This document shows, in pieces, positions 7,396 through 50,034 of a stretch of 64,000 nt of DNA (its first letter is position 1; every line of letters begins with the position of its first letter). Where the stretch lies: the NCBI GenBank assembly GCA_025993795.1, contig JAMQHL010000034.1:9291-73290 (forward strand), read 5' to 3'. The stretch is from Planctomycetota bacterium (lineage in GTDB: Bacteria > Planctomycetota > UBA8742 > UBA2392). Under the pieces are notes generated by a model. It did not search any database, was not told the DNA's origin, and saw nothing but the letters and a program-made list of their open reading frames with translations. The position numbers were made by a program, and so were the translations under genes.

Positions 7396-9453
7396 CTAGT
7401 CCTCGTGACTCAGTGCTGCAAGAAGGCATCCCTTGGCCGTGGCATTGAGAGGGTCCTCGGCTTTGCGGATCTCGCTTACCTTGATCGGGAACTTGCTGGC
7501 CATCTTGCTGAACTCGTCCTTGAACACCTCAATGAAACCGCCAACCTTGCTGGTACCGCCTGAAACAGCGATGGGTACCGGCTTGGGGAAATTGGGGATG
7601 TCTTTGGTGACCGAGAACTTCTTTACGATGTTGTCGAGCGAGTATTTGACCAGGTGGCGGTAGTAGATGACGATGGCTTCTTCTTCGGGCGTCTTGGGCG
7701 CGTTGATGTCAACACCGCGCTCTTTGACTGCAGTGATCTTGGAAGCAGCGCAACCCATGACCTGCGCGGCCTGCTGGTCGATCCAGTCGCCGCCCTTGGC
7801 CGTCGAGAAGCTGATGACCGGCATGCTGCGGAAGCATACGCAAACGTTCACCATGCCGCCGCCGCAGGAAATGCCGATGCCGGTAAACTCGTCGTCGCCC
7901 AGTTCGCTGAACACGATGGCCTGACCTTCGTTGAACGGGTGGCCGCGGTAGCCAAGGCGCTCAAGCAGGCCGTTGGCGATGTTCGTGTGGTACACGATAT
8001 TCATCGTGCTGTCGACCGGGTCAGCCGGGATGGAGTAGTACACCATCTCGCCTTCTGCACGCGGCGGCCCAAGAATCTTCTTGAACAGCTCGACTTCCAT
8101 CGGCATTGCGTCCGCGTCGGTGGGACTGATCAAGCCGTTCTTCATCGGCCGGCGCATCTCGCGGTTGAAAATGTTCGCAAGCTCGAAGGCATCTTCACCA
8201 ATGATGAAGAGCTTGTTCTCGCGCTTGATGTACGGAACACCCTGGCCCTTGAGCATCTTCAAGGTGTACGGGTCTTCGGGAACGTCCAGGAACGCGTTGC
8301 GTGCCGGAAAGAACTCGATGCTGCCCTCTTCATCCATGCGGGCCGCTACCAGGTTGGCTGTACCTACGTCTAGTCCGCGCCCGAGGGGCGCACCCGAATC
8401 ATCACCCACGGTGAATACCTCCGGCTGTTGAGAAACTTCTTCTCGTGGCTCCGCGGGAGTCGACTCTGCCGAGACCATCTCGGGCCCGTCGGCGTCCGCG
8501 CTATCCTGTTGGTTTGCTTGACCTTCTTCTTCTTCTTCTCCCCCAAGGTCAAGCTCCTCGGGTTCGCTGGCCGTTGCGATTGCGCCAGAACTATACTCAT
8601 GCTCGTCTGACTGACTGCTGCTTTCTTCGTTTTCGTCCCCAGAACGAACAGCCACCGAAGATACTTCCAAGGCTGCTGCACCGTCGTCGGACTGGTACGG
8701 ACCCTCCGCCGAATACGTTTGCGCGGGGGTGTGTGCTGCTTCCGGATCCGGGTCGGGTTTCTGCGCCGCTTTATCTAGCAGCAAGTTTTCCGTTTGACCA
8801 GCCTGATTTTCGAGACTCGCGTGACCTTCATCCCCCGTATCCGCTTGATCTTGCGCGATGTTCGATTCCCATTCCAGGGCAGTTTCCGGCGGGCCCTCCG
8901 TCTTACCCAGCGTCGAAGCGGTCAATTCGTCACCTGCCTCTTCCGATCTCTTTTCCGGCGGAAACGCCGCGTCCATTGCTTGCGCCGCCACCGTCATCGG
9001 CCCGCAACTGCCTGAGCCGGGCTCAATCGGAATCTCAAACTCGCCGATATCCGTTTCGTCGTCTACGTCTTCTACTTCCATCATCTCGCGGGACGCCACG
9101 GTCATTGGGCCTGCGGGCCCATCCTCGCCAAGGCTGCTTTCATCAAGGTCGCTGATGTCCGTGACCCCTGGGCCTGTGACGATCTCGCTGACGTCATCGT
9201 CGGCGATGTCATCTTCGGCGCTCCACTCAATGACCTCGTGCCGGCCGCTGGGTGTTACGTCTACCGGCGTATCGTGCCAGTTCTTCTCCTGCACCTTCGT
9301 CGTGCGGCGCTTGGCCGCCTTTTGCAGGCGCTCGCGCACGGTTTCACGGTGCGGTTGCTCGGCCAGGTCGCCCAGGTCAAGGTCGGCATCGTCGTCTTCG
9401 TAGACGACTTCCCCTTCGCCTTGGGCGCCTTCTTCGTTGTTCTCAGGTTCCAC
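7396..9453 (-). CDS. Actin-superfamily ATPase with long acidic disordered N-terminus
   Basis: Phosphate-1 GLDVGTANL, connect FNEGQA, phosphate-2 GISCGGG, adenosine VSGGTSK, connect-2 EDPLNATAKG; first ~350 aa are D/E-rich low complexity. Confidence 0.85.
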   Translation of the reverse strand: MEPENNEEGAQGEGEVVYEDDDADLDLGDLAEQPHRETVRERLQKAAKRRTTKVQEKNWHDTPVDVTPSGRHEVIEWSAEDDIADDDVSEIVTGPGVTDISDLDESSLGEDGPAGPMTVASREMMEVEDVDDETDIGEFEIPIEPGSGSCGPMTVAAQAMDAAFPPEKRSEEAGDELTASTLGKTEGPPETALEWESNIAQDQADTGDEGHASLENQAGQTENLLLDKAAQKPDPDPEAAHTPAQTYSAEGPYQSDDGAAALEVSSVAVRSGDENEESSSQSDEHEYSSGAIATASEPEELDLGGEEEEEGQANQQDSADADGPEMVSAESTPAEPREEVSQQPEVFTVGDDSGAPLGRGLDVGTANLVAARMDEEGSIEFFPARNAFLDVPEDPYTLKMLKGQGVPYIKRENKLFIIGEDAFELANIFNREMRRPMKNGLISPTDADAMPMEVELFKKILGPPRAEGEMVYYSIPADPVDSTMNIVYHTNIANGLLERLGYRGHPFNEGQAIVFSELGDDEFTGIGISCGGGMVNVCVCFRSMPVISFSTAKGGDWIDQQAAQVMGCAASKITAVKERGVDINAPKTPEEEAIVIYYRHLVKYSLDNIVKKFSVTKDIPNFPKPVPIAVSGGTSKVGGFIEVFKDEFSKMASKFPIKVSEIRKAEDPLNATAKGCLLAALSHED

Positions 9454-36260: not shown

Positions 36261-38489
36261 CTAGTCACCCATGGCCGCCTGGTGCGCGGGCTGGGAGGCC
36301 TTGAGGTCCTCCAGCATCAGCCGAATCGTGTCACTCGCGTAGCTGTAGGTGTGCCAGCGCCCGGTTTTGGCGCCAATGTCGTCCATGGTCTGGCCGATCA
36401 GGCGCCTGAATTCCTTGTAATCGTCGAGGGTCATTTTCATTTCGAAGAGACGTCTCACCTGTTCGCGGGTCAGCCCCGTCGGCACCGGGTTGCCATCCTC
36501 GTCAACGCCAGGCCAGTTGTTCTCCATGAAGATATCAAAGTTATCGCGGAAGTACCCGAAGGGGTCTGTGATCGAGCTGAGCTCGGCCCTGTCCGCGAGC
36601 AGGGCAAAGCAATTCTGGCGCTTCGAAAACAGCGGGCGGACGTCGCCCATGTACTTCGAACTGGCGGTCAGGCCGGCGACCAGCCAGTCGCGGACCTCGT
36701 CGTAAAAGTGCTTGCGGACCAGTTCGCGCGCAAGGTCATGGTCATCCATGTCGAACTCAAGCCATGTCAGGACCATTTCTTTGATCGCAGCGCGATTGGC
36801 GTCAAACAGCTCGGGCTTTTTCTTGATCGCATTGCCGACATGGGCCTGCTCGTTCGTGCGGATAAGCGACAGGCGACGGTTTATGCCGTACATGTTAATG
36901 CCCAGTTTGTACTCAAAGTCAGGGTCATTGCTGGCGGCATCTGCCAGCAGCTTGTAGTGGTTCTGCCAGGTCGTGTCGTACCAGTTCCACCAGTTGCGGC
37001 GTATGGACGGGTCGGTCGCATAGTTCCAGAAGCCACCAAGGTGCATGTCGCGCTCAATGATGGACCAGTCACCTATCGTGAGAAAGCGCTGCCGATAACG
37101 ATCAAGCTGGGTCTTGGCTTCGGCATAGCTCTTGTTGCGCGCGTCCCAGTATTGCTTTGAGGCAAGAGCCTGCTTCATCAGGTCGATGACCAGCGGAATC
37201 GTCGGTTGATCGCCAAATGCCATCGCCAGTTTTTCGATGGCAGCATTGCTCTGTTCCTTGAGCAGCTTTTCGTCCTGGATCGTCTTTGTGGCGGCGTCAA
37301 TTGCCTGGGCCTGATCGCGCAGTTTCTTCAAGCCGTCGGTAAACCCCTTTTCGCCCGCCGCGATCTCGGTCAACGCGAGGCACCTGGCGGAGTCACCCTC
37401 GGCCAGCGCACTGCGGGCGTCAAGATAGGCTTGCGCGCGCCGTATCAGCGCCTTGTGAACATCCGAAGGCGCGCGGTCGCGCAGCGCAGCCTTGATGGCG
37501 CTCAGGGCCTGGTCGGGCCGGTCGCCGGCCAGCAACTCTTCGGTTATGCGCGTGGCTGCGTTCAGCTCATATGTGTCAACTTCGTCAAGCGCGCTCTTGA
37601 GTGCGTCGGTGCCGCCGTGGACTTCGATATGCTTGAGCAAGAGCGTACGTGCATCGTCAGGCTTGCCCGACGACAGGTAGGCGCGTGCGCTTTCGATGAC
37701 TTTGCGCTCGGGGTTTTCCGCCGGGCCGCTGAACACCGCCAGCCCAACGATAATTGCCGTTGCCAGGATCAGCGCCGCCGCAATCACGGCAATGACCATG
37801 CCTCGCGACGATTTGCCCTGGCTTTCGACCAGGGCTTCCAGCGTGTCCTGGTAACGCGTGAACTCTTTTTCGGCCAGGTTGGTCAGCTCAAGCACGCGGG
37901 TCTTGTTCTTTTCCTTGTCGATGTTGGTGCCTTTGATGACTTTCTGGTAGCGCTCGTCGGCTTCATCCATCGCGACTTTGTACAGCTTGATCTCGCTGCT
38001 TTCGGCGCCCTTGGGGCGGAACGCCTTGACGAAAGAAGTCGGCACCTCGGACTTGTTCATGGCAAGAAACACGGACTCGGTGAAGTAGATCTCGTCAGGA
38101 TTCGTTGCCTTCTCAATCTTTGCGGCCACGTTCACCGGGTCGCCGAACACATCGTTTTCAGTAACCGTGACTTCGCCGCTGTTGATGCTGACCTTGATGT
38201 GAATCGCGTGGGAGTCGTCTTTGCCGACGTTGAACTTGCGCAGCGTGTGCTGCATGAACAGGCCGCACTGCACGGCGTTGGTCGGGCTCTCAAACGTAAT
38301 CAGGAACGCATCGCCGATGGTCTTGACGATCTTGCCGTCAAAGTGCGCCACGATCGGCATAAGCAGCTCGTTGTGTGTATCCAGCCGTGACATCAGGTCC
38401 TGGCGGCTGATCGTCTCGGTGTGCTTGGTGAAACCCGAAATGTCGGTGAACATAACGGTAAGATTCTTCTGCATGCGGCTGGTAGACAT
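36261..38489 (-). CDS. Class III adenylate/guanylate cyclase with TM and extracytoplasmic helical domain
   Basis: VMFTDISGFT, KTIGDAFL, DVFGDPVNVAAKIE; TM MVIAVIAAALILATAIIVGL. Confidence 0.9.
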   Translation of the reverse strand: MSTSRMQKNLTVMFTDISGFTKHTETISRQDLMSRLDTHNELLMPIVAHFDGKIVKTIGDAFLITFESPTNAVQCGLFMQHTLRKFNVGKDDSHAIHIKVSINSGEVTVTENDVFGDPVNVAAKIEKATNPDEIYFTESVFLAMNKSEVPTSFVKAFRPKGAESSEIKLYKVAMDEADERYQKVIKGTNIDKEKNKTRVLELTNLAEKEFTRYQDTLEALVESQGKSSRGMVIAVIAAALILATAIIVGLAVFSGPAENPERKVIESARAYLSSGKPDDARTLLLKHIEVHGGTDALKSALDEVDTYELNAATRITEELLAGDRPDQALSAIKAALRDRAPSDVHKALIRRAQAYLDARSALAEGDSARCLALTEIAAGEKGFTDGLKKLRDQAQAIDAATKTIQDEKLLKEQSNAAIEKLAMAFGDQPTIPLVIDLMKQALASKQYWDARNKSYAEAKTQLDRYRQRFLTIGDWSIIERDMHLGGFWNYATDPSIRRNWWNWYDTTWQNHYKLLADAASNDPDFEYKLGINMYGINRRLSLIRTNEQAHVGNAIKKKPELFDANRAAIKEMVLTWLEFDMDDHDLARELVRKHFYDEVRDWLVAGLTASSKYMGDVRPLFSKRQNCFALLADRAELSSITDPFGYFRDNFDIFMENNWPGVDEDGNPVPTGLTREQVRRLFEMKMTLDDYKEFRRLIGQTMDDIGAKTGRWHTYSYASDTIRLMLEDLKASQPAHQAAMGD

Positions 38490-38578
38490 ATGCTGGCTCG
38501 CTTGGTTTGCGTTCGCGGTCGACGCTGCAGGGCCTCAGACCGTAGACGATAGACCATCAACCGTTGATCGAGGGCCCA

Positions 38579-39436
38579 ATGTATCTACCCAAGGGCGCAT
38601 TTGCACCCGTTCCTACGCCGCTGACGCATGAAGATACGCTGGACACCAGTGCCCTGTCGGCGCACCTGAGCTGGCTGAAACGCGAAGGTCTGGACGGCGC
38701 GCTGATCCTGGGCACCAATGGCGAGTTCGCTTCCTTTACGCTGGCCGAGCGGCGTGCAGTCGCGGAAGCTGCCGTGAGGGCGGACTCGGGCCTGAAGCTG
38801 ATTCTGAATGTCGGGAGCTGTGCCGTTGACGAAGCCCGGCAGATGTCCGAAGTCGGCGCCGACCTGGGCTATGACGCCCTGATGTGCCCGCCGCCTTGGT
38901 ACTTTCGCAACGCGCCGGCCCAGGGCCTGTCGGACTTCTTCCGAAGGGTACTGGAGCATGCGCGCTTGCCGGTGCTGCTGTACCACATTCCGCAACTCAC
39001 AGGCATTGCGCTCACGGACGAGCTGCTGGATACCATTTGCGGCAACACACGCTGCGCGGGCATCAAGGACAGCACCGGCGACGAAGCCGAACTTGGGCGC
39101 CTGCTGCCCCGCTTTGCGAGCCGCAGCTACCTGGTGGGCAACGACAGGCTGATTGCGGCAACCCTGCAAGCTGGCGGCCACGGCAGCATCACCGCGTGCG
39201 CCAGCGTAATCCCGGACCTGGTCAAGAGCGTCGAACGCAACGCCGATCAACAAGTGAAGCTGAACAGCGTGCGCGGATTGCTGGAAAAGTTCGGCCTGGG
39301 GCCGGCGGTGAAGGCCATCCTGCGCAAGAAAGGATTCGGCGACTACGCCACGCGCCCGCCGCTGACAGCGCTGCCGGATGCACAAGCCGAGCAGATGATC
39401 GCGATGCTGAACATGTTCGGCGCGATCAAGTGGTAA
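38579..39436 (+). CDS. Dihydrodipicolinate synthase/N-acetylneuraminate lyase family aldolase
   Basis: PTPL, LGTNGEF, LLYHIPQLTG, Schiff-base GIKDS. Confidence 0.88.
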   Translation: MYLPKGAFAPVPTPLTHEDTLDTSALSAHLSWLKREGLDGALILGTNGEFASFTLAERRAVAEAAVRADSGLKLILNVGSCAVDEARQMSEVGADLGYDALMCPPPWYFRNAPAQGLSDFFRRVLEHARLPVLLYHIPQLTGIALTDELLDTICGNTRCAGIKDSTGDEAELGRLLPRFASRSYLVGNDRLIAATLQAGGHGSITACASVIPDLVKSVERNADQQVKLNSVRGLLEKFGLGPAVKAILRKKGFGDYATRPPLTALPDAQAEQMIAMLNMFGAIKW

Positions 39437-39449
39437 TGCCTGGCTGTCG

Positions 39450-40667
39450 CTACTCCATGGCCTTTTTGCAGTTGCTCAGGATGATCATGCCGAAGCCCGT
39501 GCCGTAAGGCTTGGCGTAGCCGTAAAGCGGGTAGTCCCAGAAGCTGCCGTCGTCGTACTGGCCTGCCACGATAAGCTCGCCGAGCTTGTCGCCGTACTTG
39601 GGCTGATCGGCCTTTGGAAGCGCCAGCACGTTGCGCGACGCGTGATAGTGGCCGAAGTAGTAGTAATACGGTGCCGTGGCGTACCAGGCCTCATGCGGGA
39701 ACTGGCGTCCGCGGCCGATCTCAATGAACACGTGCTCAGGCCCAAGAAACGTGTCAAGTTGCGCCTTCAGCATGTCCGGCGTCACAAGGCGACCCCACAG
39801 TTGCAGCGCGTTGTCGCCGGACTGGCTGCGGCCCAGGCTGCCGCGCGGCAGGTTGGCAACGCCCTGCGGGTAGTGCATGTGCCCGCTGCTGTAATAGTAG
39901 GCACCGTTGGGGATGCGGTGGCGCTGCAGGTAATCCAGCGCGATCTGCACGTTATGGTCGCGCAGGCCTTCGCCGTCGGGGTTGGATTCACTGCGACCAA
40001 GCCGCAGGTCAGACTTGAAGGCCTCATGCAGCGCCACCAGCGCCGCAGCGGTGGTGAATGCCGTGCTGATGTCGCCACTGGGGCGCAACGTGCGAAAGTC
40101 AAAGTCGTAGTAGCCCCAGCCACCGTCCAGCGACTGGTGGTCCAGCAGCCGCCGCAATTCGTGCTCGGCGCGCTTGCGCAACCGCGGCTTGTCTTTGGCA
40201 AAGCGCGCATCGGCCATGGCGCGCGTCAATGCCTGGACCATGTAGGTGTGCGACCAGACGTTGTAGAATGTGTTCATGGTCGCGCGCGGCGTATCCGGCG
40301 CGTCAATCAGGTACTCAAAGCCCTTGGCCAGTGCGGCATTGATCTCGTCGGTGGGCGGTTGCAGCAGCAGGCCCATCAGGCACAGCGCGGTGCTGGCGTT
40401 GCCCCAGACGTGCAGGCTGTTGATGCTGCCAAGATATATGTCGTTGGGGCGCTCAGTCATGTAGCCCCAGTCGCCCTGTCGTTTCTGGTTATCCAGTGCC
40501 CAGCGCACGGCGCGGTCCAGGTTCTGCTGGTACTTCCATCCGGCTGGCTGGGGCGTGGGATCGGGCGTCGGCGCGGGTACTACCGGCGCAGGCTTGTTGT
40601 CGGCACTTTTCGTGCAGGCGCAAAGGGTCAGACCGATCGCGGCAAGGATGATCCATGTTGGGCGCAC
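39450..40667 (-). CDS. Lipoprotein with prenyltransferase/squalene-oxidase-repeat (alpha/alpha toroid) domain
   Basis: Lipobox LCAC; QW-like motifs QKRQGDW, HQSLDGGW, QYDDGSF; GGAG before GTG 40667. Confidence 0.8.
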   Translation of the reverse strand: MRPTWIILAAIGLTLCACTKSADNKPAPVVPAPTPDPTPQPAGWKYQQNLDRAVRWALDNQKRQGDWGYMTERPNDIYLGSINSLHVWGNASTALCLMGLLLQPPTDEINAALAKGFEYLIDAPDTPRATMNTFYNVWSHTYMVQALTRAMADARFAKDKPRLRKRAEHELRRLLDHQSLDGGWGYYDFDFRTLRPSGDISTAFTTAAALVALHEAFKSDLRLGRSESNPDGEGLRDHNVQIALDYLQRHRIPNGAYYYSSGHMHYPQGVANLPRGSLGRSQSGDNALQLWGRLVTPDMLKAQLDTFLGPEHVFIEIGRGRQFPHEAWYATAPYYYYFGHYHASRNVLALPKADQPKYGDKLGELIVAGQYDDGSFWDYPLYGYAKPYGTGFGMIILSNCKKAME

Positions 40668-40700
40668 GTGCACTCCTGCTTCTACGGCCAAACACTCAGA

Positions 40701-41867
40701 CTACTCCGGCAGTGACACACCAACCCTGGCACCCGGCAGGAACTTGCCGTCGGCGTTGTCCACCTCGATGCGCGTGCTGACCTTGCCGTCACGCACCAGC
40801 ATACCGATCAGCTTGACGGTGCCGCTGCCACTGACACCGAGTTCGTCGCTCTTCACGGAAACCTTGGTGCCCGGCTGATACTTGGCGCGGGCATTGGCCA
40901 ATACCGGCACGGTGACGTGAAGCGTGGCTGTGTTGATCACAGTGACCAGCGCCTGTCCGCGGTTGACTTTGTCGCCCGCCTTGGCGGGCATGGCAACGCC
41001 GTCGTTGCCGGCAAGGCCGCCGGCCAGCATCACGCCGTCGTGTGGCGCGATCAGCACAAGCGCATTGGCGTCAGCTTCAAGTTTGGCCATCTGCTGGACG
41101 GCATCCTTGTGCCTGCGCTCAGCACCCATGAGTTTTGACTTCAGGTCAGTGTTGCCGTTGGCTTTCAGTGTCTCGATGCGTTGCATCTCCAGTTCGGCGC
41201 CTTTCACGGCGCTTTCAAGGTCCTGGTCACGGCGCGGCAGATCAACTTTCAACCAGCGGTCGTGGCGGTCCTGCGCCATCTTGTGGCGTTCTTTGCTCTG
41301 GGCCAGGCGCCGCTTGCTGCGGTTCAGCACAATGTCCTGGCTTTCCTTGGCGAGATCGTTGCCCTTGTACAACTTCTCGAGCTGTGCCAGCTCTTCTTCC
41401 TGGTCTTCGATGCTGAACTTGCTGCCCTCAAGGTTCATTTCGTTGTTGCGCACCTGCTGCTTGCGGTCGATCTCGCGAAAGAACTGCAGCTCTTCGCGGG
41501 CGCGCTCAAGGCGGCGCTGCGCCGCCAGCACCTGCTCGGGAAAGCTGTCTTCGTACTGCCTGGAAGCGTCTTTCATCGCCTGCAGCCCAAGCTCGGCGGC
41601 GGTCAGGCCTTCGCGACCGCGCTCAAGGGCCTCGGCGTACTCGGGCGCCTCAAGCTCGGCGAGTTTGTCGCCCGCTTTCATGGCCATGCCGGGCGTGGCG
41701 ATCCACTTCAGCCGTAACTCGCCACTGTACGCCTGCAGGTCCACTTTGACTTCGGTCGCCTGGGCGGCTTCCAGCTTGCCGGAAAGCGCCTTGCTGTCGT
41801 CCTGGGCTTGCGAGATGCCGGCTACGGCAAGAGTGATCAGCACAGCAGAACAAATCTTAAGACGCAT
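40701..41867 (-). CDS. HlyD/periplasmic adaptor (membrane fusion) family protein
   Basis: Signal peptide, split lipoyl halves (MKAGDKLAEL / LIAPHDGV..GDKV..GQAL), long coiled coil, PGARV terminus. Confidence 0.85.
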   Translation of the reverse strand: MRLKICSAVLITLAVAGISQAQDDSKALSGKLEAAQATEVKVDLQAYSGELRLKWIATPGMAMKAGDKLAELEAPEYAEALERGREGLTAAELGLQAMKDASRQYEDSFPEQVLAAQRRLERAREELQFFREIDRKQQVRNNEMNLEGSKFSIEDQEEELAQLEKLYKGNDLAKESQDIVLNRSKRRLAQSKERHKMAQDRHDRWLKVDLPRRDQDLESAVKGAELEMQRIETLKANGNTDLKSKLMGAERRHKDAVQQMAKLEADANALVLIAPHDGVMLAGGLAGNDGVAMPAKAGDKVNRGQALVTVINTATLHVTVPVLANARAKYQPGTKVSVKSDELGVSGSGTVKLIGMLVRDGKVSTRIEVDNADGKFLPGARVGVSLPE

Positions 41868-42020
41868 CGGAATGTCTCCGTGGGCACAGCCAGAATGAGG
41901 GAACACCATGAATACGCGTATCCCCCCGTCGGGGGAAGGAAAATTGTGAGGTTGCGGCAACCCCCGTAAATGACAACCGCCGCGATTTCCGCGGCGGTTG
42001 GGCCTGCTTGCCTGATCGGG

Positions 42021-44663
42021 CTACTCTTCGGGCTGATCTTCGTCGGGGTTGGTCTTCTTGTCTTGTGTCGTTGGGTTGTTCGGGTCGGTGGGCTGGGTTT
42101 TGGGGGTGTAGCCGTCTTTCCATCCGCCGTCGGTTTCACCGAGAATCCAAAGGGCTTCGCAGGTGCCGCACAGCTTGCCGAAGCTGGGGTGGCCCAGCCA
42201 GGTGCCGTCGGCATTACGTGTCTGCATCAGGGACTTGATGCAGATTTCGTTGATGTCCTTGAACTGGGACTTGCCGCAGTCCTTGGCTGCCATCAGCGTC
42301 CAGTAGTGGCTGAACAGCCAGTAGTATGCCGCGTTGAACCAGCGCTCAAGGTTGTGCGGGCTGCCGCCGATGCGCGGGTTGTAGTAGTACTCCATGCGCC
42401 GCACAACGTCGAGCTCGCTGCGGTAGCGAATGAACTGGTCGATGATCTTCTTCAGGTCGCCGCTCTTGCGCGTGCCGTAGCGGTTCAGCGCAAGCTCGCA
42501 GATGCCGTTGCGACCCTGGCAACCACGGATGTCGATGCCCATGTTGTTCGGGTGCTCGCGTGAGCCTGCACGGTACATGTAAGTCTCGGCGCCACCGTGT
42601 GCGGCGTCTTTCTCGCGCAGATTGGTCAGCAGGTTGGCGGCGCTGCGCAACGGCCCCTTGAGCGTCGTGCGCATGCCCTTGATGTCGATGTCTTTCTGGA
42701 CATCCAGCAGCACAAGCAGTGCCGCCGCAGTGGCAAAGCTGGGGGCTTCACCCATTTCGGGGTAATATGCCCAGCCGCCTTCTTCAACACCTTCCTCGGC
42801 GTCGCCGGTTGTGGGTTCCCACTTGGGCAGCACGTACTTTATCTCGATCGACTTGCCGCCACGGTCCATGGTGAAGATCGCTTCTTCGCCGGCGGTGAGG
42901 TCCCAGTACGCGTCACGGAACGAGAAGAAATCGGCGGTCTGGTTGCCATTGATGGCGGAGAAGATGTCACCGACCTTCATGCCCGCCTTTTCGGCGGCGC
43001 CGCCCTTGTCCACGCGGTTGCACATGGCCCGGAACTGGCGGTCCACCGTCACCCCGAACTGGGGGTTGAAGGGCTGCGGCACGGCGTCGGCGATGACATC
43101 CGCCTCCATCTCCTGCCCGTCACGTATCCACTTGATCTTGAACTGCTTGCCGGCAGGCACCGTGCCCAGAAACTCAAAGAAATGGTCGTAGCCCAGCATC
43201 GGCGTGTCGCCAACCCAGGTGACGCGGTCGTCATCTTTCAAGCCGGCTTCACCAGCCGAAAGGTCGGGGCGTATGCCGTCAACGACGACGCCGTTGTCGT
43301 CGCCCTTGTCTTCTTCTTTGACTATGAAGCCGAACCAGCCCTCCGGGGCGCCGCTGGCTTCAATGGTCACGCTGGTTTTCCTCTTCTTCTCGCCGCGCAG
43401 AACCTTCAGCTTGATCTTCTTGCCCGGGACGATGCCGTTTTCATGCACGCGGAAGTCGTCGATCTTGCTGATAGCGTTGCCTTCGACCTCGTTGATGATG
43501 TCGCCGACTTCAAGCTTGTCGCGGCACGGGCTGAAGGGCAGGAACTTCTCGACAATCGGACCTTCGCCAACTCCCGGGCTGAGCTTCAGACCAAGGTAGC
43601 CGGGCCATGATGGCTTGATGCTGACGTCCTTTGTGAACTCGGCGCGGTCGCGCTTGATCTTGAGGCGCACCTTCTGGCCGCCCTGCCAGTTCGCCTCTTC
43701 AAGGTAGAAGTCCAGCGCGTTTTCGATGCGCAGGCCCTCGGCCTCAATGATCCGGTCGCCAACCTGCAATGCGACGCCTTCGGCGGTGCCGCCGGGGATA
43801 ATTCTGTCAATCGGCGCGCCGCCGCGGTACTCGGTATCGGTGGGGGGCTTCATGACCACGCCCAGGCCAGCCGGGCCTGAGTTCTTGAGGCGGCTGCTGA
43901 TGCGGGCCTTGCGCTTCTTTTCAAGCAGCTTGGCAGTGTCCTGCGGCAGTTGCAGGCGCAACATGGAGTTGACCATGCGGCGCGAAACCGCGCGGATCTC
44001 GTTCTTGAGTTCTTCGTCCTTGGTGACGACAAACTCACCGTGCAAGAACTTCAGCCCAAGCGTGTAGCGCCAGTTGGCGTACCAGACGCCCAGGGGCAGC
44101 TTGCCGCGATACACGCGGTCGATTACAAAGTTGACGGCCTTCTTGAGTGCAGCCTCAATGCGGATCGGGTCTACCTTGATGTGGTAGCGCAGTGAAACAC
44201 CCGCCAGTGCCGTCGCGGAAATCGCGTCCACGGCCTGGTCCGCAGTGTCCGACAAGAGCGAACCAGACAGCTCAACGTCCCACGCGCCATTCTCTTTCTG
44301 GCTGTCGAGCAGGAACTCGATTGCCTTCACGATTGCTGCGCGAACTTCATCGTCGGCGGGCATCTTTCCCGTCAGGTCCAGCGGCGGGTCAGGTTTCCAG
44401 CCCGGCGGCTGCATGCCGGGGCCTTGCAGCGGCTGAATCCCCGATCCGTTGCCGCCGATGTCGAGCAGCACCCTGGTAGGGTCAAAGTCCGGCATCGGCG
44501 CCAGCTTCGGCTGCTCCAGGCCAGCCATGGTGTCGCCGACGTTCGAGACTTCCACGACCGGCGTCGGCGCAACCTCAGTTCCGCGGTAGTTCGTGCTGAA
44601 CAATGCCAAGCCGCAAAGTACGGCAGGAACGAGAAGTGCCCTCTTAGAGAAGGAGTAGCCCAT
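42021..44663 (-). CDS. Exported alpha/alpha-toroid protein with four internal PDZ domains
   Basis: SQKENGAW, GGWAYY, TRNADGTW; four PDZ units (GLGV..GDRI, YLGL..GDII, WFGF..DDRV, QFGV..GDIF). Confidence 0.85.
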   Translation of the reverse strand: MGYSFSKRALLVPAVLCGLALFSTNYRGTEVAPTPVVEVSNVGDTMAGLEQPKLAPMPDFDPTRVLLDIGGNGSGIQPLQGPGMQPPGWKPDPPLDLTGKMPADDEVRAAIVKAIEFLLDSQKENGAWDVELSGSLLSDTADQAVDAISATALAGVSLRYHIKVDPIRIEAALKKAVNFVIDRVYRGKLPLGVWYANWRYTLGLKFLHGEFVVTKDEELKNEIRAVSRRMVNSMLRLQLPQDTAKLLEKKRKARISSRLKNSGPAGLGVVMKPPTDTEYRGGAPIDRIIPGGTAEGVALQVGDRIIEAEGLRIENALDFYLEEANWQGGQKVRLKIKRDRAEFTKDVSIKPSWPGYLGLKLSPGVGEGPIVEKFLPFSPCRDKLEVGDIINEVEGNAISKIDDFRVHENGIVPGKKIKLKVLRGEKKRKTSVTIEASGAPEGWFGFIVKEEDKGDDNGVVVDGIRPDLSAGEAGLKDDDRVTWVGDTPMLGYDHFFEFLGTVPAGKQFKIKWIRDGQEMEADVIADAVPQPFNPQFGVTVDRQFRAMCNRVDKGGAAEKAGMKVGDIFSAINGNQTADFFSFRDAYWDLTAGEEAIFTMDRGGKSIEIKYVLPKWEPTTGDAEEGVEEGGWAYYPEMGEAPSFATAAALLVLLDVQKDIDIKGMRTTLKGPLRSAANLLTNLREKDAAHGGAETYMYRAGSREHPNNMGIDIRGCQGRNGICELALNRYGTRKSGDLKKIIDQFIRYRSELDVVRRMEYYYNPRIGGSPHNLERWFNAAYYWLFSHYWTLMAAKDCGKSQFKDINEICIKSLMQTRNADGTWLGHPSFGKLCGTCEALWILGETDGGWKDGYTPKTQPTDPNNPTTQDKKTNPDEDQPEE

Positions 44664-44938
44664 TGTGTATCCCCTCGGGCGCAAGCGCCGAAACTGCAAC
44701 CACACCGGATGAGAATTCATGCCTAAAGACGCAATTCCTAGCTACGGAGTTCCAAGCAACTTCAAGAGGTTAATACGAGGTTCGGCAAGTTGTTGGCGGC
44801 TGGATTCTCCGATCTGCCACCCGAACGCAGAGTTTAGCAAGAAAGCAACGAAGGCACACAAAAAGCGTGCCTGGTCGTGCAGTGTCGCAATACAAATCAG
44901 CCGGCATTTGCATATCGGCAATCAGCGACCTCCAGCGC

Positions 44939-47548
44939 CTAATCCTCGCCCTCTACCTTTCGGTCTGGTGCCTTTTCCTCTTCCTTGGCTTCCTTCTCTT
45001 TGGCGTCTTTTTTCTCGTCGGGGCCGGGCGTGATCGGGCTCTTTGGTTTGTCCGGCTCTTTCGGGTCTTCCTTGTCGCGGTCGCGGCGAACATGGTCAGT
45101 GAACACCGGCGGCGCTGCACGCTTCAGGAACAAGATGGCCCAGGCACAGTTGATCAGGTTGGAGGTCGGCCCCATGTCAGGACGAAAGCCTTGGCCATTG
45201 CTCCAGCTGCCGTCGAGGTTCTGCGCCTCAATCAGCGCTTCTGCGCCGATCATGTACCAGTCAAGGCCATTGCTGAGCTTTCGCAGGCCGGCAAGTTCAC
45301 ACCCGCGTTCCACCGAATAAAGATTGTAGTACGTGCCTATGCCGTCGCTGCAGGACTTCATCACCTGACCGTCGGCCCGTGCCAGCATTTCCGGCGTGTA
45401 GTAGGTGGCTGCAAGGCGCAATTGCGCGCCATGAATATGCCTGGCGATCTCGAACTCGAACTTCTGGTCGAGCGCGTCACGCGACTTCAGCTCGTCGAGG
45501 CAGATTGCCAGGCTGCCGATGCCGGCTGCCGTAAACTGCATGGTGTCACCGCCGCGCACGACACTGTACGACCAACCTCCTGCCACAATCTTGCCCTTGT
45601 GCACAACGGCCGTGCGGCCAGTGCCTTCGCTTGCGTACTGGTACTCCACCGCAGGCGCGCCCTGCACTTGCGCATAACTGTCGATCAGGCGCTGCGCCTC
45701 GTTCTTGAAGGTCGTGGCAGAAACCTTGGCGCCGAGCGTGCTTCCGGCCTGGTAGGCCAGCACCGCGAACTGTGTGCAGGAATTGTCGCTGTGGGTCAGT
45801 TTTTGGCTGGGGTAGTAGCCCCAACCACCCTGCAGCCCGCGCGAACCGTCAAGCTGGCCGATGATTGCGTCAATCACCGCCATGTGGTCCCGCTTGACCA
45901 GCTTGCGGATTTTGACTCGCGCCGCCTCAAACTCTTTCGCCGTGTTTGCGCTGAACAGGCCGGCTTCGCGCATTTCTGGCTCGTACAGCTTCTGGTACGC
46001 CATCAAGATCAAGCCAGCGTTGTACGTGCCGACCCCGCGCTGCGACATCGCCTCGCACTGGGTCGTGAGCTTGTCAAAGCCCCGTGTGATGACTTCAGCG
46101 TCCCGCGAGTAACGGCCATGAAGCAGCGCCAGCAGGCAGACCCCGGTGTTCCCGGGCTGCTGCTCGTTGGTGCCGCTGAAACTGCCGTCGGAGGTCAGCC
46201 GGGTTTCAAGGAATGCGCAACCGTCTTCAATGGCAAAGCCGACGCGATCATTGAAGCTGCCGCTGTCTTCACGCTCTTGGCTGGCATGCAGCAAAGCCAG
46301 GGCGTGCAGATAGCGGCCGATGGCTGCCAGTGTATGCGCAGACAAGGGGCCGTTTCCGGCGCGCAGCAGACCGCCGCACAGCGCGACGCCGGCAAGGGCG
46401 GTCTCGGCACTTTCGATTTCTTCGCGCTTCGTAATGGTAGCTCCAAGGCCCATTTCGTTCAGCAGATTGTGTCGGCCGACGAATGCGCCGCGCATGTCGG
46501 CCTTGGCCGTTGAGCGTGTCAGGCAGTCGTGCCGCCAAACATCCATGCTGGTGCGGGCCGTGGTCATGTCTTTGTGCAGCCCCCACAGGAACAACAGACC
46601 GGCCCCCCTTGGCTCAAGGCGTTCCCACTGCTCCGACCACTCTTCCAGCTTGGAAGTGACGGCCTTGAGTTGCTTGCTCAACGTGCTTTGAATGGACTTC
46701 GGCAGCAGGCCTTCCGGTGCGTTCAGCGCCAGGCTCAGGGCCATCATGCCCATCTGGTTGGTGTGCTGGGTCTGGCTGAACTGTTCAAGCCGGGGGTTGG
46801 TGGTCCATCCACCCTTGCGCTCCCAAGCTTTGCACAGGGAGCGCAGGTCGGTTTCCCACAGTGAGGTATCGACCTTCACGCCCGAGTCGTGGGCGCAACG
46901 CAGGATCACAGCGCGCCACATCTGGTTCGCAAACCAGTTGGTGTGAACATTATCCTTAGTAATGAAGGGCGAGTTGATCGCCGTTGCGGCTTTCATCTCT
47001 TGCGCGGTCTTGTAGATCTTCCCAGCGCGCTCTTTCAGTGCTTCCGGCGAACGGGCGTCGCCCCGCAACAGTGCCGCGCGGCAGATGAGCGCCTGGATTG
47101 CCGCCGGGCCTAGAAGGTTGCCGGCTGCGGGGACCTGCGTGTCCATCATGCGGCGCAGGTGGTTGTCAGCGGCCGCCGTCAGCGGCATGCCGCTCTCGAG
47201 CACGAGCCACAGGCGCATGGCCTCAACTTCGGTGAATGCCTCGGCAGTACTGACTTCAAACGACTTCAACGAAGAAGGCCGGTAGCGCCGACCTTTGAAC
47301 AGTTCTTCTTCAAACTCGGGGCGCAGCAGGTACCGCAGCGCGTTGTAAAGCACCTTTTCTTGCCGGCTGAGGGTGTCAGTGAGCGCTCGGGCGCGACTCA
47401 GTTCATCGGGGTCAATCGGCGCCGGTTTGATCGAGTCTTCCGCGGTAACCGAAAACGCGCAAACGCAAGCAAGTAACAGGGCGCATGGGAGGTAGCGAAG
47501 GATCCTCAATGTCTGCTCCGGCGAAAGGTCACACGACTGGGCAGACAT
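44939..47548 (-). CDS. Exported protein with prenyltransferase-like alpha/alpha toroid domain(s)
   Basis: GNTGVCLLAL, QGGWGY..SDNSCTQFAVL, GGWSY, YYNLYSVER, AQNLDGSW; start uncertain. Confidence 0.8.
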   Translation of the reverse strand: MSAQSCDLSPEQTLRILRYLPCALLLACVCAFSVTAEDSIKPAPIDPDELSRARALTDTLSRQEKVLYNALRYLLRPEFEEELFKGRRYRPSSLKSFEVSTAEAFTEVEAMRLWLVLESGMPLTAAADNHLRRMMDTQVPAAGNLLGPAAIQALICRAALLRGDARSPEALKERAGKIYKTAQEMKAATAINSPFITKDNVHTNWFANQMWRAVILRCAHDSGVKVDTSLWETDLRSLCKAWERKGGWTTNPRLEQFSQTQHTNQMGMMALSLALNAPEGLLPKSIQSTLSKQLKAVTSKLEEWSEQWERLEPRGAGLLFLWGLHKDMTTARTSMDVWRHDCLTRSTAKADMRGAFVGRHNLLNEMGLGATITKREEIESAETALAGVALCGGLLRAGNGPLSAHTLAAIGRYLHALALLHASQEREDSGSFNDRVGFAIEDGCAFLETRLTSDGSFSGTNEQQPGNTGVCLLALLHGRYSRDAEVITRGFDKLTTQCEAMSQRGVGTYNAGLILMAYQKLYEPEMREAGLFSANTAKEFEAARVKIRKLVKRDHMAVIDAIIGQLDGSRGLQGGWGYYPSQKLTHSDNSCTQFAVLAYQAGSTLGAKVSATTFKNEAQRLIDSYAQVQGAPAVEYQYASEGTGRTAVVHKGKIVAGGWSYSVVRGGDTMQFTAAGIGSLAICLDELKSRDALDQKFEFEIARHIHGAQLRLAATYYTPEMLARADGQVMKSCSDGIGTYYNLYSVERGCELAGLRKLSNGLDWYMIGAEALIEAQNLDGSWSNGQGFRPDMGPTSNLINCAWAILFLKRAAPPVFTDHVRRDRDKEDPKEPDKPKSPITPGPDEKKDAKEKEAKEEEKAPDRKVEGED

Positions 47549-47713: not shown

Positions 47714-48091
47714 TCAGACCGTTGATTCGGCAGCTTCGCCGTTGGCTTCGGCGTTTTCGTCTTCGCTGCTTTCGTTCTCATCGGACTCCGAGGTGAACTC
47801 AAGTTCCCACGGGCCGTCCGGTTCAAATTGCGCAAGCGTCAATTTGGTGATCACTTCGCTGGTGTCTACGTCAGGACCCCAGCTTACGCGGTCAACGGTG
47901 TCCTGGGCGGCGACGAGCTCAACGCTGTCTTCGTTGGCAACGCTCCACGGTGCCTTCTCAAGAGAAGCGCGCAGTTCCTTGAATGCTTCGCCCGGAATCA
48001 GAATGCCGTAGTGCCACGGCGCATCGTGCTGCAGCTCTTCAATTGTCGCGGCGTGCTCGCCATCAATGAAGATGTTCGTCTTCTCGCTCAC
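47714..48091 (-). CDS. Hypothetical acidic protein
   Basis: GTG at 48091 with GGAGA upstream; acidic tail. Confidence 0.65.
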   Translation of the reverse strand: MSEKTNIFIDGEHAATIEELQHDAPWHYGILIPGEAFKELRASLEKAPWSVANEDSVELVAAQDTVDRVSWGPDVDTSEVITKLTLAQFEPDGPWELEFTSESDENESSEDENAEANGEAAESTV

Positions 48092-48741
48092 TGTCTCTCC
48101 TGTACCCGCCGTTGCTCGTCGTGGTGGAATCATCAAGCCCGCATTCCTGCGGGCGTAAACTGGGGGAAAGCGCCTTGTCACCTTGCTGCTTCGGTCAACT
48201 TCGACACGAGTTTGAGGCGAAGAGGTATCTTCCCCTTTCCCTGCTTCCTATCTAATCGGATTTCCTTCCCGGTGCGAGGCGTAACACGGATTTTCTGGGG
48301 CAAGATTTTCGGGCCGACACGACTCCGCAGGTGCAAAACGCACAGCCGCGCTTTTGCACCGACGGCGTTGCAGCCAAAGGCAAGCGCCGCGACGCGCCAC
48401 ACACGCCTGAACGAACGCCCTGCGCAGGAACTTCCCGAATCGCCCTGTCAACCAAATACCGGGCGGTTAGTTCCGACCCCGCGGATACGACGCAACCATG
48501 TACAGCGTTTGGTTTTCCGACGTTACTGACACCCATCATGCAGTTTGGCACATAAGATCCACAAACTGCCAAGATTGCCCTGTCTGAATTTTTCCTGATT
48601 CCGTAACCCCAAACAAAGCAGGCACTTGCTCCAAACCCCATATTTCTCGCCTTTCCTCGCTAGTCGTACCCGTAACTTCTACTGTTACAATCGCCAGCGT
48701 CGGGCCCTCCCCGGCGTCCTGTTTGAAGGTTGTGGATTCCA

Positions 48742-50034
48742 ATGGCCTATCGCGTTGTGAAACTTCCGCTCACTACCACGCGCACCAGCACGACACGCGG
48801 TCGTACTCTCGTTCGTCTGTCACGAAAGCGCGGCAAGCTCCCGCGCTCAAGTTTTTCCGCGTTCCAGATTCTGGCCCGGCGTCTTGGGCGCCACGAGTTT
48901 CGCGTTGAATCCGACAAAGAGGACGGCTGGCTTCGCTGGTTGCGTGAAGCCGGCGGCGCCAAGCGCCACGGCGATGCGCTGAAGCTGGTTACTCGCGGCG
49001 ATGCCATGGCGGTTGTTGTACCCCTGGTCAAGGGTGTTGCTGCGCCGCGCATGGACGAAGTGATGCGCCTGTTTGCGGGACTTGAGCTGGCGCGGCAGCT
49101 CAGGGCCAAGCGCATCGGCAAGGTCGTCACACTGCTTTGGCCCGCGATCGACATTGGCGAATGGGGCGAAACCGGTATCAGCGCGATCATGCAGCGTACC
49201 GGCGAGCTTGAGGACGTCGGTTTTCGCGGCGGCGCCGTCCAGAAGTACATCGACGGTTTGCGCAGCACGTTGCCGGGAACCGGTTTTTCCAGCCTGCTTC
49301 TTGATCAGCTTGCCCGGGCCGCCGACGACGACCCTGACCTGTTCAAGGCGCGCCTGCTGCTTCGCTGGTTCGATGACGAGAACCTGACTGTTCTGAAGCC
49401 GACCGCATCGGCCGGATATGAACTGAACCTGCGCAACCTGTTCAAACAGATTCCGTTGGTTGCCGCTGTCGGCAGCGGAAGCCCCGTGGCGGGTGTACCC
49501 CCCGGCGAGCCCGTGCCCTACCCGGGCGGAAGTGCAACCGTGATTGAGGGCAAGGTCGAGAGCTGGCTGGCCAAGTTCGGGCTGCAGCCTGAAGAGGTGC
49601 TTGCCAGCGAAGTGCAACCCGACGATGCCGTGAAGCGCCACCTGCCTGAGGACATTCCGGGCGTGTTCAGCGAAGCGAAAGAGCGCGTGCTGTCTGAGCT
49701 GCTGCGCTTCGAAATGGGTCTGAATGACCTTGGGTTCAACCCCGAGAACGACATCAAGAAGCTGCTGACGAACACGGACATCGGGTTTGACAAGCTCCGT
49801 CAGCGCGCAACGACCGAAGCGGCACGCGAGGTGGACGTGAACGGCAAGCAGCTCGCCAAGCTGTTTCACTACCTGCTGCCCGACGGCAAGCCGCAGCAGG
49901 AGGTGATGAGCCTGCTGCATTATCTCGATTTTTACGGCCCCGACTTTCTTGAGGGGCTGCGCACGAAGCTGCAGTTCGATGACGTGAGGCACCAGGCTGT
50001 GTATCTGGCAGATGAAGATGCAGTCGGAGGTTAG
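48742..50034 (+). CDS. BshC-like protein with degenerate motifs
   Basis: SATVIEGKVESWLAKFGL and LLPDGKPQQEVMSLLHYLDFYGPDF resemble the BshC C-terminal half. Confidence 0.55.
   Translation: MAYRVVKLPLTTTRTSTTRGRTLVRLSRKRGKLPRSSFSAFQILARRLGRHEFRVESDKEDGWLRWLREAGGAKRHGDALKLVTRGDAMAVVVPLVKGVAAPRMDEVMRLFAGLELARQLRAKRIGKVVTLLWPAIDIGEWGETGISAIMQRTGELEDVGFRGGAVQKYIDGLRSTLPGTGFSSLLLDQLARAADDDPDLFKARLLLRWFDDENLTVLKPTASAGYELNLRNLFKQIPLVAAVGSGSPVAGVPPGEPVPYPGGSATVIEGKVESWLAKFGLQPEEVLASEVQPDDAVKRHLPEDIPGVFSEAKERVLSELLRFEMGLNDLGFNPENDIKKLLTNTDIGFDKLRQRATTEAAREVDVNGKQLAKLFHYLLPDGKPQQEVMSLLHYLDFYGPDFLEGLRTKLQFDDVRHQAVYLADEDAVGG

Follow-up and report, generated by a model that had tools for sequence, protein, structure and literature searches.

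How does a periplasmic adaptor protein operate when no pump is encoded beside it? To our knowledge, such proteins are understood only as connectors between a pump and an outer-membrane channel. The question is raised by a locus in a 64,000-nucleotide stretch of DNA from a Planctomycetota bacterium (GTDB lineage Bacteria; Planctomycetota; UBA8742; UBA2392; assembly GCA_025993795.1, contig JAMQHL010000034.1, forward-strand positions 9,291 to 73,290), all of which is referred to below as the window. Four consecutive, co-directional genes on its minus strand, designated P4, P3, P2 and P1 from 5' to 3', had been noted in a preliminary description as encoding three exported toroid proteins plus an orphan HlyD adaptor, and a periplasmic or surface protein-modifying or scaffold system had been proposed. 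The open reading frames (ORFs) are indeed present, and their leaders, called by eye from the ORF translations and the N-termini of homologues, are signal or lipoprotein peptides that agree with a periplasmic or envelope location of all four proteins. What the preliminary description missed is an ancient core formed by the adaptor P2 and the toroid P1, and a conserved, pocket-like face on P1. We tentatively favour, at somewhat less than an even chance, a pump-independent periplasmic adaptor-toroid complex that acts on an envelope substrate and is extended here by a PDZ-bearing toroid.

The conservation of the locus was surveyed with P1 as the anchor, using 80 loci from species-representative genomes, whose ORFs were all searched using the four proteins and family hidden Markov models (HMMs) as queries. 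In 71 of the 75 evaluable loci, the gene immediately 5' of the P1 orthologue encodes a P2-type adaptor, and the two genes overlap by 4 nucleotides in 26 of those. These linked pairs occur in Phycisphaerae, Isosphaeraceae, Gemmataceae, Pirellulales, Brocadiaceae and several classes of Verrucomicrobiota. The same arrangement was present in 13 of 13 further genomes, and the adaptor was also upstream in all four loci where P1 bears extra domains. Clustering of the ORFs neighbouring the P2-P1 loci revealed no other co-travelling family or transporter, and those neighbours that did recur (genes for an MscS-like channel, a sulfatase, a PQQ propeller, an acylphosphatase and an M16 peptidase) did so only within particular lineages. 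The reported lack of an adjacent pump or channel was borne out: no gene for an ATP-binding cassette (ABC) transporter, a resistance-nodulation-division (RND) pump or an outer-membrane factor lies within ~10 kb on either side of the four genes, and no pump was found beside the P2-P1 pair in the more than 90 related loci examined.

Two credible in-frame fusions of P2 to P1 were identified (P0131/L052 and P0138, the latter with 40% identity to the L052 fusion). In both, P2 precedes P1, the internal signal peptide of the toroid is gone, and a Pro/Lys-rich linker of 30-45 residues connects the two parts. Judged from these sequences, the fusions imply that P2 and P1 would act in close proximity and at a 1:1 stoichiometry. 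Other long frames were rejected as fusions. P0139 (992 residues) still has the P1 signal peptide inside it, where the two parts meet, and is likely an artefact of read-through or a frameshift, and open frames of 840-1040 residues near P1 orthologues were discarded after P2 and P1 were found in different frames in 13 of 13 cases.

The other two genes are distributed more narrowly. P3 is confined to the window's own clade, and its occurrences all coincide with a P1 identity of ~49% or more (L001, L005, L007, L009, L010 and L013-L016). P4 is confined to the nearest clade and varies in position: it is adjacent in L005, L009, L010, L013 and L014, located elsewhere in L011, and alone in L004 and L006. 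The full P4-P3-P2-P1 order is repeated in L009, L013 and L014. The idea that the four genes form one conserved system did not survive this comparison, as P4, and in part P3, is unlinked in relatives. The four-gene unit is an ancient P2-P1 core, with P3 present in a single clade and P4 only loosely attached.

P2 is a member of the adaptor family, with matches to Pfam HlyD_3 (30.6 bits, cut-off 22.2) and HlyD_D23 and to the NCBIfam model RND_mfp. It consists of lipoyl halves, a helical region of ~200 residues (residues ~110-315) and a beta-barrel. A profile built from 26 P2 members matched MexC-like and MacA structures at E ~1e-30, covering the second lipoyl half, the beta-barrel and the membrane-proximal domain. 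P2 itself and its near relatives stop ~55 residues before most family members, so that the C-terminal membrane-proximal segment is gone. The earlier assignment to an HlyD adaptor needs two corrections: P2 is closer to MacA/MexC than to HlyD, and it lacks this segment. The probable start is M32, which gives the leader MRLKICSAVLITLAVAGISQA followed by QDD. This is a type I signal peptide ending in ISQA directly before QDD, and inspection showed the same type, with no lipobox, in 25 of 26 homologues. No inner-membrane anchor, either lipobox or transmembrane helix, was seen in P2 by inspection.

Conservation in P2 peaks at residues 188-215 (EELAQLEKLYKGNDLAKESQDIVLNR) in both a 69-sequence and a 26-sequence alignment. 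E190, Y198, I210 and R214 are invariant, and the consensus reads EL.QL...Y....L......I...R. The stretch lies near the middle of the helical region, where the tip of a hairpin would be expected. The RLS tip motif of adaptors that engage an outer-membrane factor, which has a role in binding TolC-type channels (PMC13328181), is not present at this conserved tip. The assembly that holds the window (3.29 Mb, 85% complete) contains eight other adaptor-like genes, seven of which adjoin pumps (four RND and three MacB-type); P2 is the exception. A further P2-like adaptor domain was noted at the end of a 2197-residue open frame in locus L036 (3285-9878), which may be a genuine giant fusion or an ORF drawn out too far by the GC-rich DNA.

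P1 begins with a lipobox (LCAC, with Cys26) and a Pro-rich linker to about residue 54, and the rest of the protein (residues 55-413) is a single (alpha/alpha)6 toroid. A lipobox-like motif was present in 61 of 80 homologues. The protein passes Pfam SQHop_cyclase_C (30.5 bits, cut-off 26.1) and scores 37 bits against a cut-off of 431.1 with the NCBIfam squalene-hopene model TIGR01507; it has one toroid and not the two-domain beta-gamma arrangement. An AlphaFold2 (AF2) model from an 80-sequence alignment (predicted local distance difference test score, pLDDT, 88.9; predicted template-modelling score 0.85) has twelve main helices. Foldseek searches of the PDB returned generic (alpha/alpha)6 proteins as best matches, at template-modelling (TM) scores of 0.45-0.54 and a root-mean-square deviation (rmsd) of 6-7 Å, among them squalene-hopene cyclase (SHC), MstE, GH105, GH76, AprG, a polysaccharide lyase, a glucose-2-epimerase and the thioester domains of TEP1 and C5. 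The family profile aligned with 2sqc over ~75 positions (E 1e-17), and PDB sequence searches with P1 and P4 gave spurious or repeat-level matches only.

The motifs of known enzymes of this fold were looked for in all four proteins. A regular-expression search found no DxDD, as had been reported, and no DDxxD or CxEQ either. There is no match to the Pfam families Prenyltrans (PF00432) and LANC_like, the mature P1 family has no invariant Cys, and no carbohydrate-active-enzyme family of Pfam or NCBIfam matches the toroid proteins. The QW-like repeats ascribed to the three toroids proved weak: P1 passes SQHop_cyclase_C by a small amount, and P3 and P4 have no such Pfam match. By these motifs and family matches the proteins are not cyclases, prenyltransferases or thioester proteins, and our searches returned no characterised member of the exported planctomycete toroid family, in line with the preliminary view that it is uncharacterised.

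The P1 family carries a sharply conserved set of residues. Across 80 homologues from two phyla, with a mean column identity of 37%, the invariant or near-invariant positions are Y143, W146, H148, Y150, Y194, D196, Y267, R288, R329, P332, H333, E334, Y342, H348, D386, Y392 and Y396, with Y194 and D196 located in a GGWGYYDF loop. The invariant residues were retained in every orthologue tested, including fused ones and those with extra domains. On the AF2 helix map they fall in the loops before the six inner helices. Enzymes with the (alpha/alpha)6 fold have their pocket on the ring face that bears the loops preceding the inner helices, and we infer from the model that the P1 residues would lie together on one such face.

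P3 is a diverged toroid of the same family that is split by PDZ domains. Orthologue alignment places its most likely start at M20, and its leader is hydrophobic, with a lipobox in some orthologues. The N-terminal part of the toroid (residues ~119-257) is followed by a PDZ array (~263-646) and the C-terminal part (~647-862). The P1-family HMM matches both flanks, at residues 119-257 and 647-862, and comparison of the flanks with the P1 profile gave an hhalign probability of 99.4% (E 9e-22). The array of ~390 residues is inserted 2-3 residues before the GGW(G/A)YY loop; P3 lacks the D196 loop, and the array sits at that site. R737, H789 and H805 are retained, corresponding to R288, H333 and H348 of P1. 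Pfam identified four PDZ domains (PDZ_2, PDZ and PDZ_6). NCBIfam DegP/RseP models matched in the PDZ part only and well under their cut-offs (e.g., 108 against 416), and no protease domain was found in Pfam, NCBIfam or PDB searches. No other toroid with an inserted PDZ array was found in Pfam or PDB searches. In a quick maximum-likelihood tree of P1 domains, P3 forms a separate, long-stemmed clade (99% in the Shimodaira-Hasegawa approximate likelihood ratio test, SH-aLRT). Orthology of P3 with the second toroid of tandem-toroid lineages was rejected, as those second copies arose by recent duplication within the P1 clade. The same genome encodes a second PDZ-split toroid of 818 residues (G000:C45:1029-3485).

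P4 has a signal peptide (residues ~1-37) that ends in SVTA before ED, a helical N-terminal domain (~40-426) that resembles nothing tested, an (alpha/alpha)6 toroid (~427-822) and a disordered tail rich in K, E and P (823-869). It has no Pfam or NCBIfam match. An AF2 model from 10 sequences is all-helical (pLDDT 79.7), with Foldseek target-TM scores of 0.5-0.6 to AprG, GH76, SHC and FTase-beta, and the C-terminal half matches the P1 family at an hhalign probability of 97.5%. A second toroid in the N-terminal domain was considered and rejected, as profile comparisons linked this domain neither to the C-terminal half of P4 nor to P1 or P3. The claim of three toroids therefore stands for the whole of P1 and for the flanks of P3, and for P4 only as regards its C-terminal half. 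The full-length P4 architecture is represented by ~35-50 clusters at 50% identity (about 50 at E <= 1e-30), and a search with the toroid half alone matched over 1,500 proteins. The window genome has about a dozen scattered toroid-family ORFs; because there are only about a dozen in a 3.3-Mb assembly, three in four consecutive genes are not expected by chance. We infer that P4 is an auxiliary paralogue that is loosely attached to the locus. A second multi-toroid cluster was observed on another contig (G000:C48:1352-6800), where a P4 paralogue of 869 residues precedes toroid lipoproteins of 454 and 389 residues, with no adaptor.

To place the pair in a wider context, the distribution of P1 was assessed across genomes. 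With a strict threshold, orthologues were present in 124 of 283 high-quality Planctomycetota genomes; among genomes at least 95% complete the share is about a quarter, with a bimodal distribution of best E-values. Only 10 of 151 Verrucomicrobiota genomes (~7%) had P1. Presence is patchy, and the pair is therefore an accessory module, not a core envelope machine. In the quick maximum-likelihood tree, the verrucomicrobial sequences (Opitutales, Verrucomicrobiales and Akkermansiaceae) nest in a Planctomycetia clade on short branches, and this nesting, together with the ~7% presence, suggests that the P2-P1 pair may have been transferred between phyla. The similarity to squalene-hopene cyclases was also followed at the genome level. 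Across 301 Planctomycetota genomes (37/98/76/90), P1 and squalene-hopene cyclase are negatively associated (odds ratio 0.45, p 0.001, uncorrected for phylogeny), which makes a hopanoid-handling role for P1 unlikely.

Some lineages have tandem double toroids, and several adaptor-paired P1 orthologues carry additional C-terminal domains, namely GDPD together with GDSL/SGNH, Amidohydro_1, Dabb or ThuA. Toroids with GDPD and GDSL/SGNH domains occur in at least six protein clusters, including those of L100 (Gemmatales), L102 and L103. Because these fusion partners include esterases and phosphodiesterases, an ester- or phosphodiester-bearing lipid or glycan of the envelope or periplasm may be the substrate, which we offer as a lead only. 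The Gemmatales-type partners are proteins of 790-980 residues with the GDPD-like and GDSL/SGNH domains at the C-terminus (L100:5525-9931; L102:3217-7814; L103:2568-5844), and in L102 and L103 the genes after the toroid encode a DUF7133/HEAT protein and a ThuA protein. At L101:3308-7784, lgt, which encodes prolipoprotein diacylglyceryl transferase, comes after an adaptor and a toroid-Dabb fusion.

In the adaptor-toroid complex that we favour, P2 and P1 would form a roughly 1:1 periplasmic assembly, in which P2 may serve as an oligomerising stalk across the envelope and P1 as the working module, through either binding or catalysis. In the window's clade the adaptor would have shed its membrane-proximal C-terminal segment and the diverged paralogue P3 would have been added upstream; the PDZ domains of P3, at the mouth of the putative pocket, could capture the C-termini of proteins or peptides and deliver them to the complex. 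Several observations weigh against this reading. Most P2-family members keep the membrane-proximal domain, which is the transporter contact in known adaptors. The pair was present in none of the 12 closed or near-closed planctomycete genomes, in which every candidate was scored, and it is missing from most of the Verrucomicrobiota sampled. The placement of the P1 residues on one face, as a pocket, derives from topology, the linkers of the fusions leave the position of the toroid along the adaptor unfixed, and the heterogeneity of the fusion partners makes the substrate class a weak one.

Three other explanations were weighed against the adaptor-toroid complex, and all are less well supported. 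P2 could be an ordinary adaptor for a MacB or RND pump encoded elsewhere, with the toroids as periplasmic accessory or substrate-delivery factors. The fit of the P2 profile to MexC-like and MacA structures and the membrane-proximal domain of most family members would suit this explanation, and the genome does encode three MacB-type and four RND pumps. However, each of these pumps already adjoins an adaptor gene of its own, none of the more than 90 loci has a pump beside the pair, P2 has neither a membrane anchor nor an RLS tip, and in the window's clade it has lost the C-terminal segment that would contact the transporter. We therefore consider a distant pump unlikely. A somewhat smaller chance is given to the toroids being stand-alone exported (alpha/alpha)6 hydrolases, lyases or epimerases for polysaccharide foraging, next to an adaptor that is merely a co-regulated neighbour. 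Foldseek did return GH76, GH105, a polysaccharide lyase, a glucose-2-epimerase and AprG, the invariant Tyr, Trp, His, Arg, Asp and Glu residues are typical of sugar-binding pockets, and the esterase and amidohydrolase fusions would suit de-esterification or deacetylation of a glycan. These structural matches do not exceed a TM score of 0.54 at an rmsd of 6-7 Å, though, and there are no Pfam or NCBIfam matches to carbohydrate-active enzymes; the nearest profile relatives are squalene cyclases. The freely variable neighbourhoods are not polysaccharide-utilisation loci, and translational coupling to the adaptor and fusion with it favour a joint function.

The protein-modifying system of the preliminary description, in the form of a prenyltransferase- or lanthionine-cyclase-type machine of all four proteins, in which catalysis would fall to the toroids and substrate selection to the PDZ domains, appears very improbable. 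Its fold is that of prenyltransferase beta subunits (FTase-beta is among the P4 matches), P3 has its four PDZ domains, and the conserved His and Asp residues could bind a metal. Against this, matches to Prenyltrans and LANC_like and an invariant Cys are all lacking, no periplasmic alpha-subunit or source of isoprenoid diphosphate is evident, and P1 is less, not more, frequent in genomes with squalene-hopene cyclase. P3 and P4 are missing from most genomes with P2-P1, so the four are not a single machine. Beyond the PDZ array, nothing speaks directly for protein modification as first proposed; a scaffold is plausible.

The arrangement of the genes may hint at how they are expressed. The gaps are ~275 nucleotides between P4 and P3, ~150 between P3 and P2, and 9 between P2 and P1. 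Terminator-like hairpins were found upstream of P4 and in the P4-P3 gap (Table 1). The upstream one is strong and is suggestive of P4 opening a new transcription unit; the one in the gap fits the separability of P4 from P3-P2-P1 in relatives. The total number of such hairpins in the region is not above chance, and their positions alone are suggestive. An Rfam search of the region returned no element, and a promoter scan of the region found nothing. Two units, P3-P2-P1 and a loosely linked P4, are the best explanation of the region.

The flanking genes were also inspected. Beyond the DHDPS-family gene lies an adenylate/guanylate cyclase gene whose product has a long helical/TPR-like extension, and in L005 a HAMP-cyclase gene adjoins the P3 homologue. 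On the other side, L005 (49% identity in P4) shares the order of the CC_BshC gene, the small ORF and the P4 homologue. It is in itself unexpected for a planctomycete to have a bacillithiol-synthesis-like domain.

Table 1. Features of the P4-P3-P2-P1 region, in window coordinates
Feature	Position	Strand	Remarks
Adenylate/guanylate cyclase gene	36261-38489	minus	742 aa
DHDPS-family gene	38564-39436	plus	converges on P1, 13 nt between ORF ends
P1	40691-39450	minus	413 aa ORF
P1 toroid	39453-40529	minus	residues 55-413
P2	41960-40701	minus	419 aa ORF
P2 probable start	41867	minus	M32
P2 hairpin-tip motif	41316-41399	minus	residues 188-215
P3	44720-42021	minus	899 aa ORF; ~880 aa from M20
P3 most likely start	44663	minus	M20
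P3 PDZ array	42783-43934	minus	residues ~263-646
Terminator-like hairpin, P4-P3 gap	44872-44852	minus	8-bp stem, then T-rich tail
P4	47548-44939	minus	869 aa ORF
P4 toroid	45083-46270	minus	residues ~427-822
P4 N-terminal domain	46271-47431	minus	residues ~40-426
Terminator-like hairpin upstream of P4	47704-47671	minus	downstream of the 155-aa acidic ORF; 13-bp stem, 8 GC pairs, then TATTTTTT
Small acidic ORF	47714-48181	minus	155 aa, upstream of P4
BshC-C-terminal-coiled-coil-like gene	48730-50034	plus	divergent from small acidic ORF

We found no description of an adaptor-toroid pairing in the literature searched, and a term search of a 2026 review (PMC13328181) returned neither "orphan" nor "Planctomyc". 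In the loci described here, an adaptor family has a stable partner that is not a transporter, to which it is fused in two cases and which bears a sharply conserved site, and the pair is widespread in two phyla with poorly understood cell envelopes. If the complex does form, it would extend the known range of the adaptor fold and provide a handle on an envelope process not yet known in Planctomycetota and Akkermansia-type Verrucomicrobiota. Two variants that can be put to the test come from the window, a four-PDZ toroid and an adaptor minus its membrane-proximal segment. A bolder version, in our view on the unlikely side, is that the pair represents an unrecognised envelope assembly: a membrane fusion protein scaffold with no energised transporter, displaying one enzyme- or receptor-like toroid per protomer, to which lineages would add modules such as the PDZ arrays found here or the SGNH/GDPD hydrolases of Gemmatales-type genomes. 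It would then be a modular periplasmic workbench for envelope remodelling.

Each component can be compared with a known system. P2 shares with the MacA/MexC-type adaptors (PDB 5nik, 3fpp and 9j3d) the lipoyl and beta-barrel domains and a helical, hairpin-like region between the lipoyl halves. It differs from them in having no cognate pump gene, in its cleavable signal peptide in place of a lipid or transmembrane anchor, in its tip (E-L-x-Q-L-x3-Y...I...R instead of RLS) and, in the window's clade, in the lost C-terminal membrane-proximal segment; the hairpin region is also about twice as long as that of MacA. The P3 PDZ domains are most similar to those of DegP/DegQ, RseP and Prc/Tsp, whereas P3 has no protease domain and carries the array inside a toroid loop.

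The toroids can be set beside three groups of proteins. P1 has the (alpha/alpha)6 fold of squalene-hopene and class II terpene cyclases (1sqc/2sqc, 8pak and MstE, 6sbf), with a short but significant sequence signal. In contrast to these cyclases, it is a single domain of ~360 residues and not two, is exported as a lipoprotein, lacks DxDD, reaches TM scores of only ~0.45-0.5 and has an invariant polar/aromatic site of its own. Compared with the (alpha/alpha)6 glycoside hydrolases, lyases and AGE epimerases, P1 has no Pfam match to these families, and its similarity is limited to TM scores of at most 0.54 with an rmsd above 6 Å. The toroid fold is likewise shared with the thioester domain of A2M, C3-C5 and TEP1, and some P1 homologues give a faint match to Pfam TED_complement. 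Bacterial A2M is a periplasmic lipoprotein. P1, unlike the thioester proteins, has neither CxEQ nor macroglobulin domains and is far smaller.

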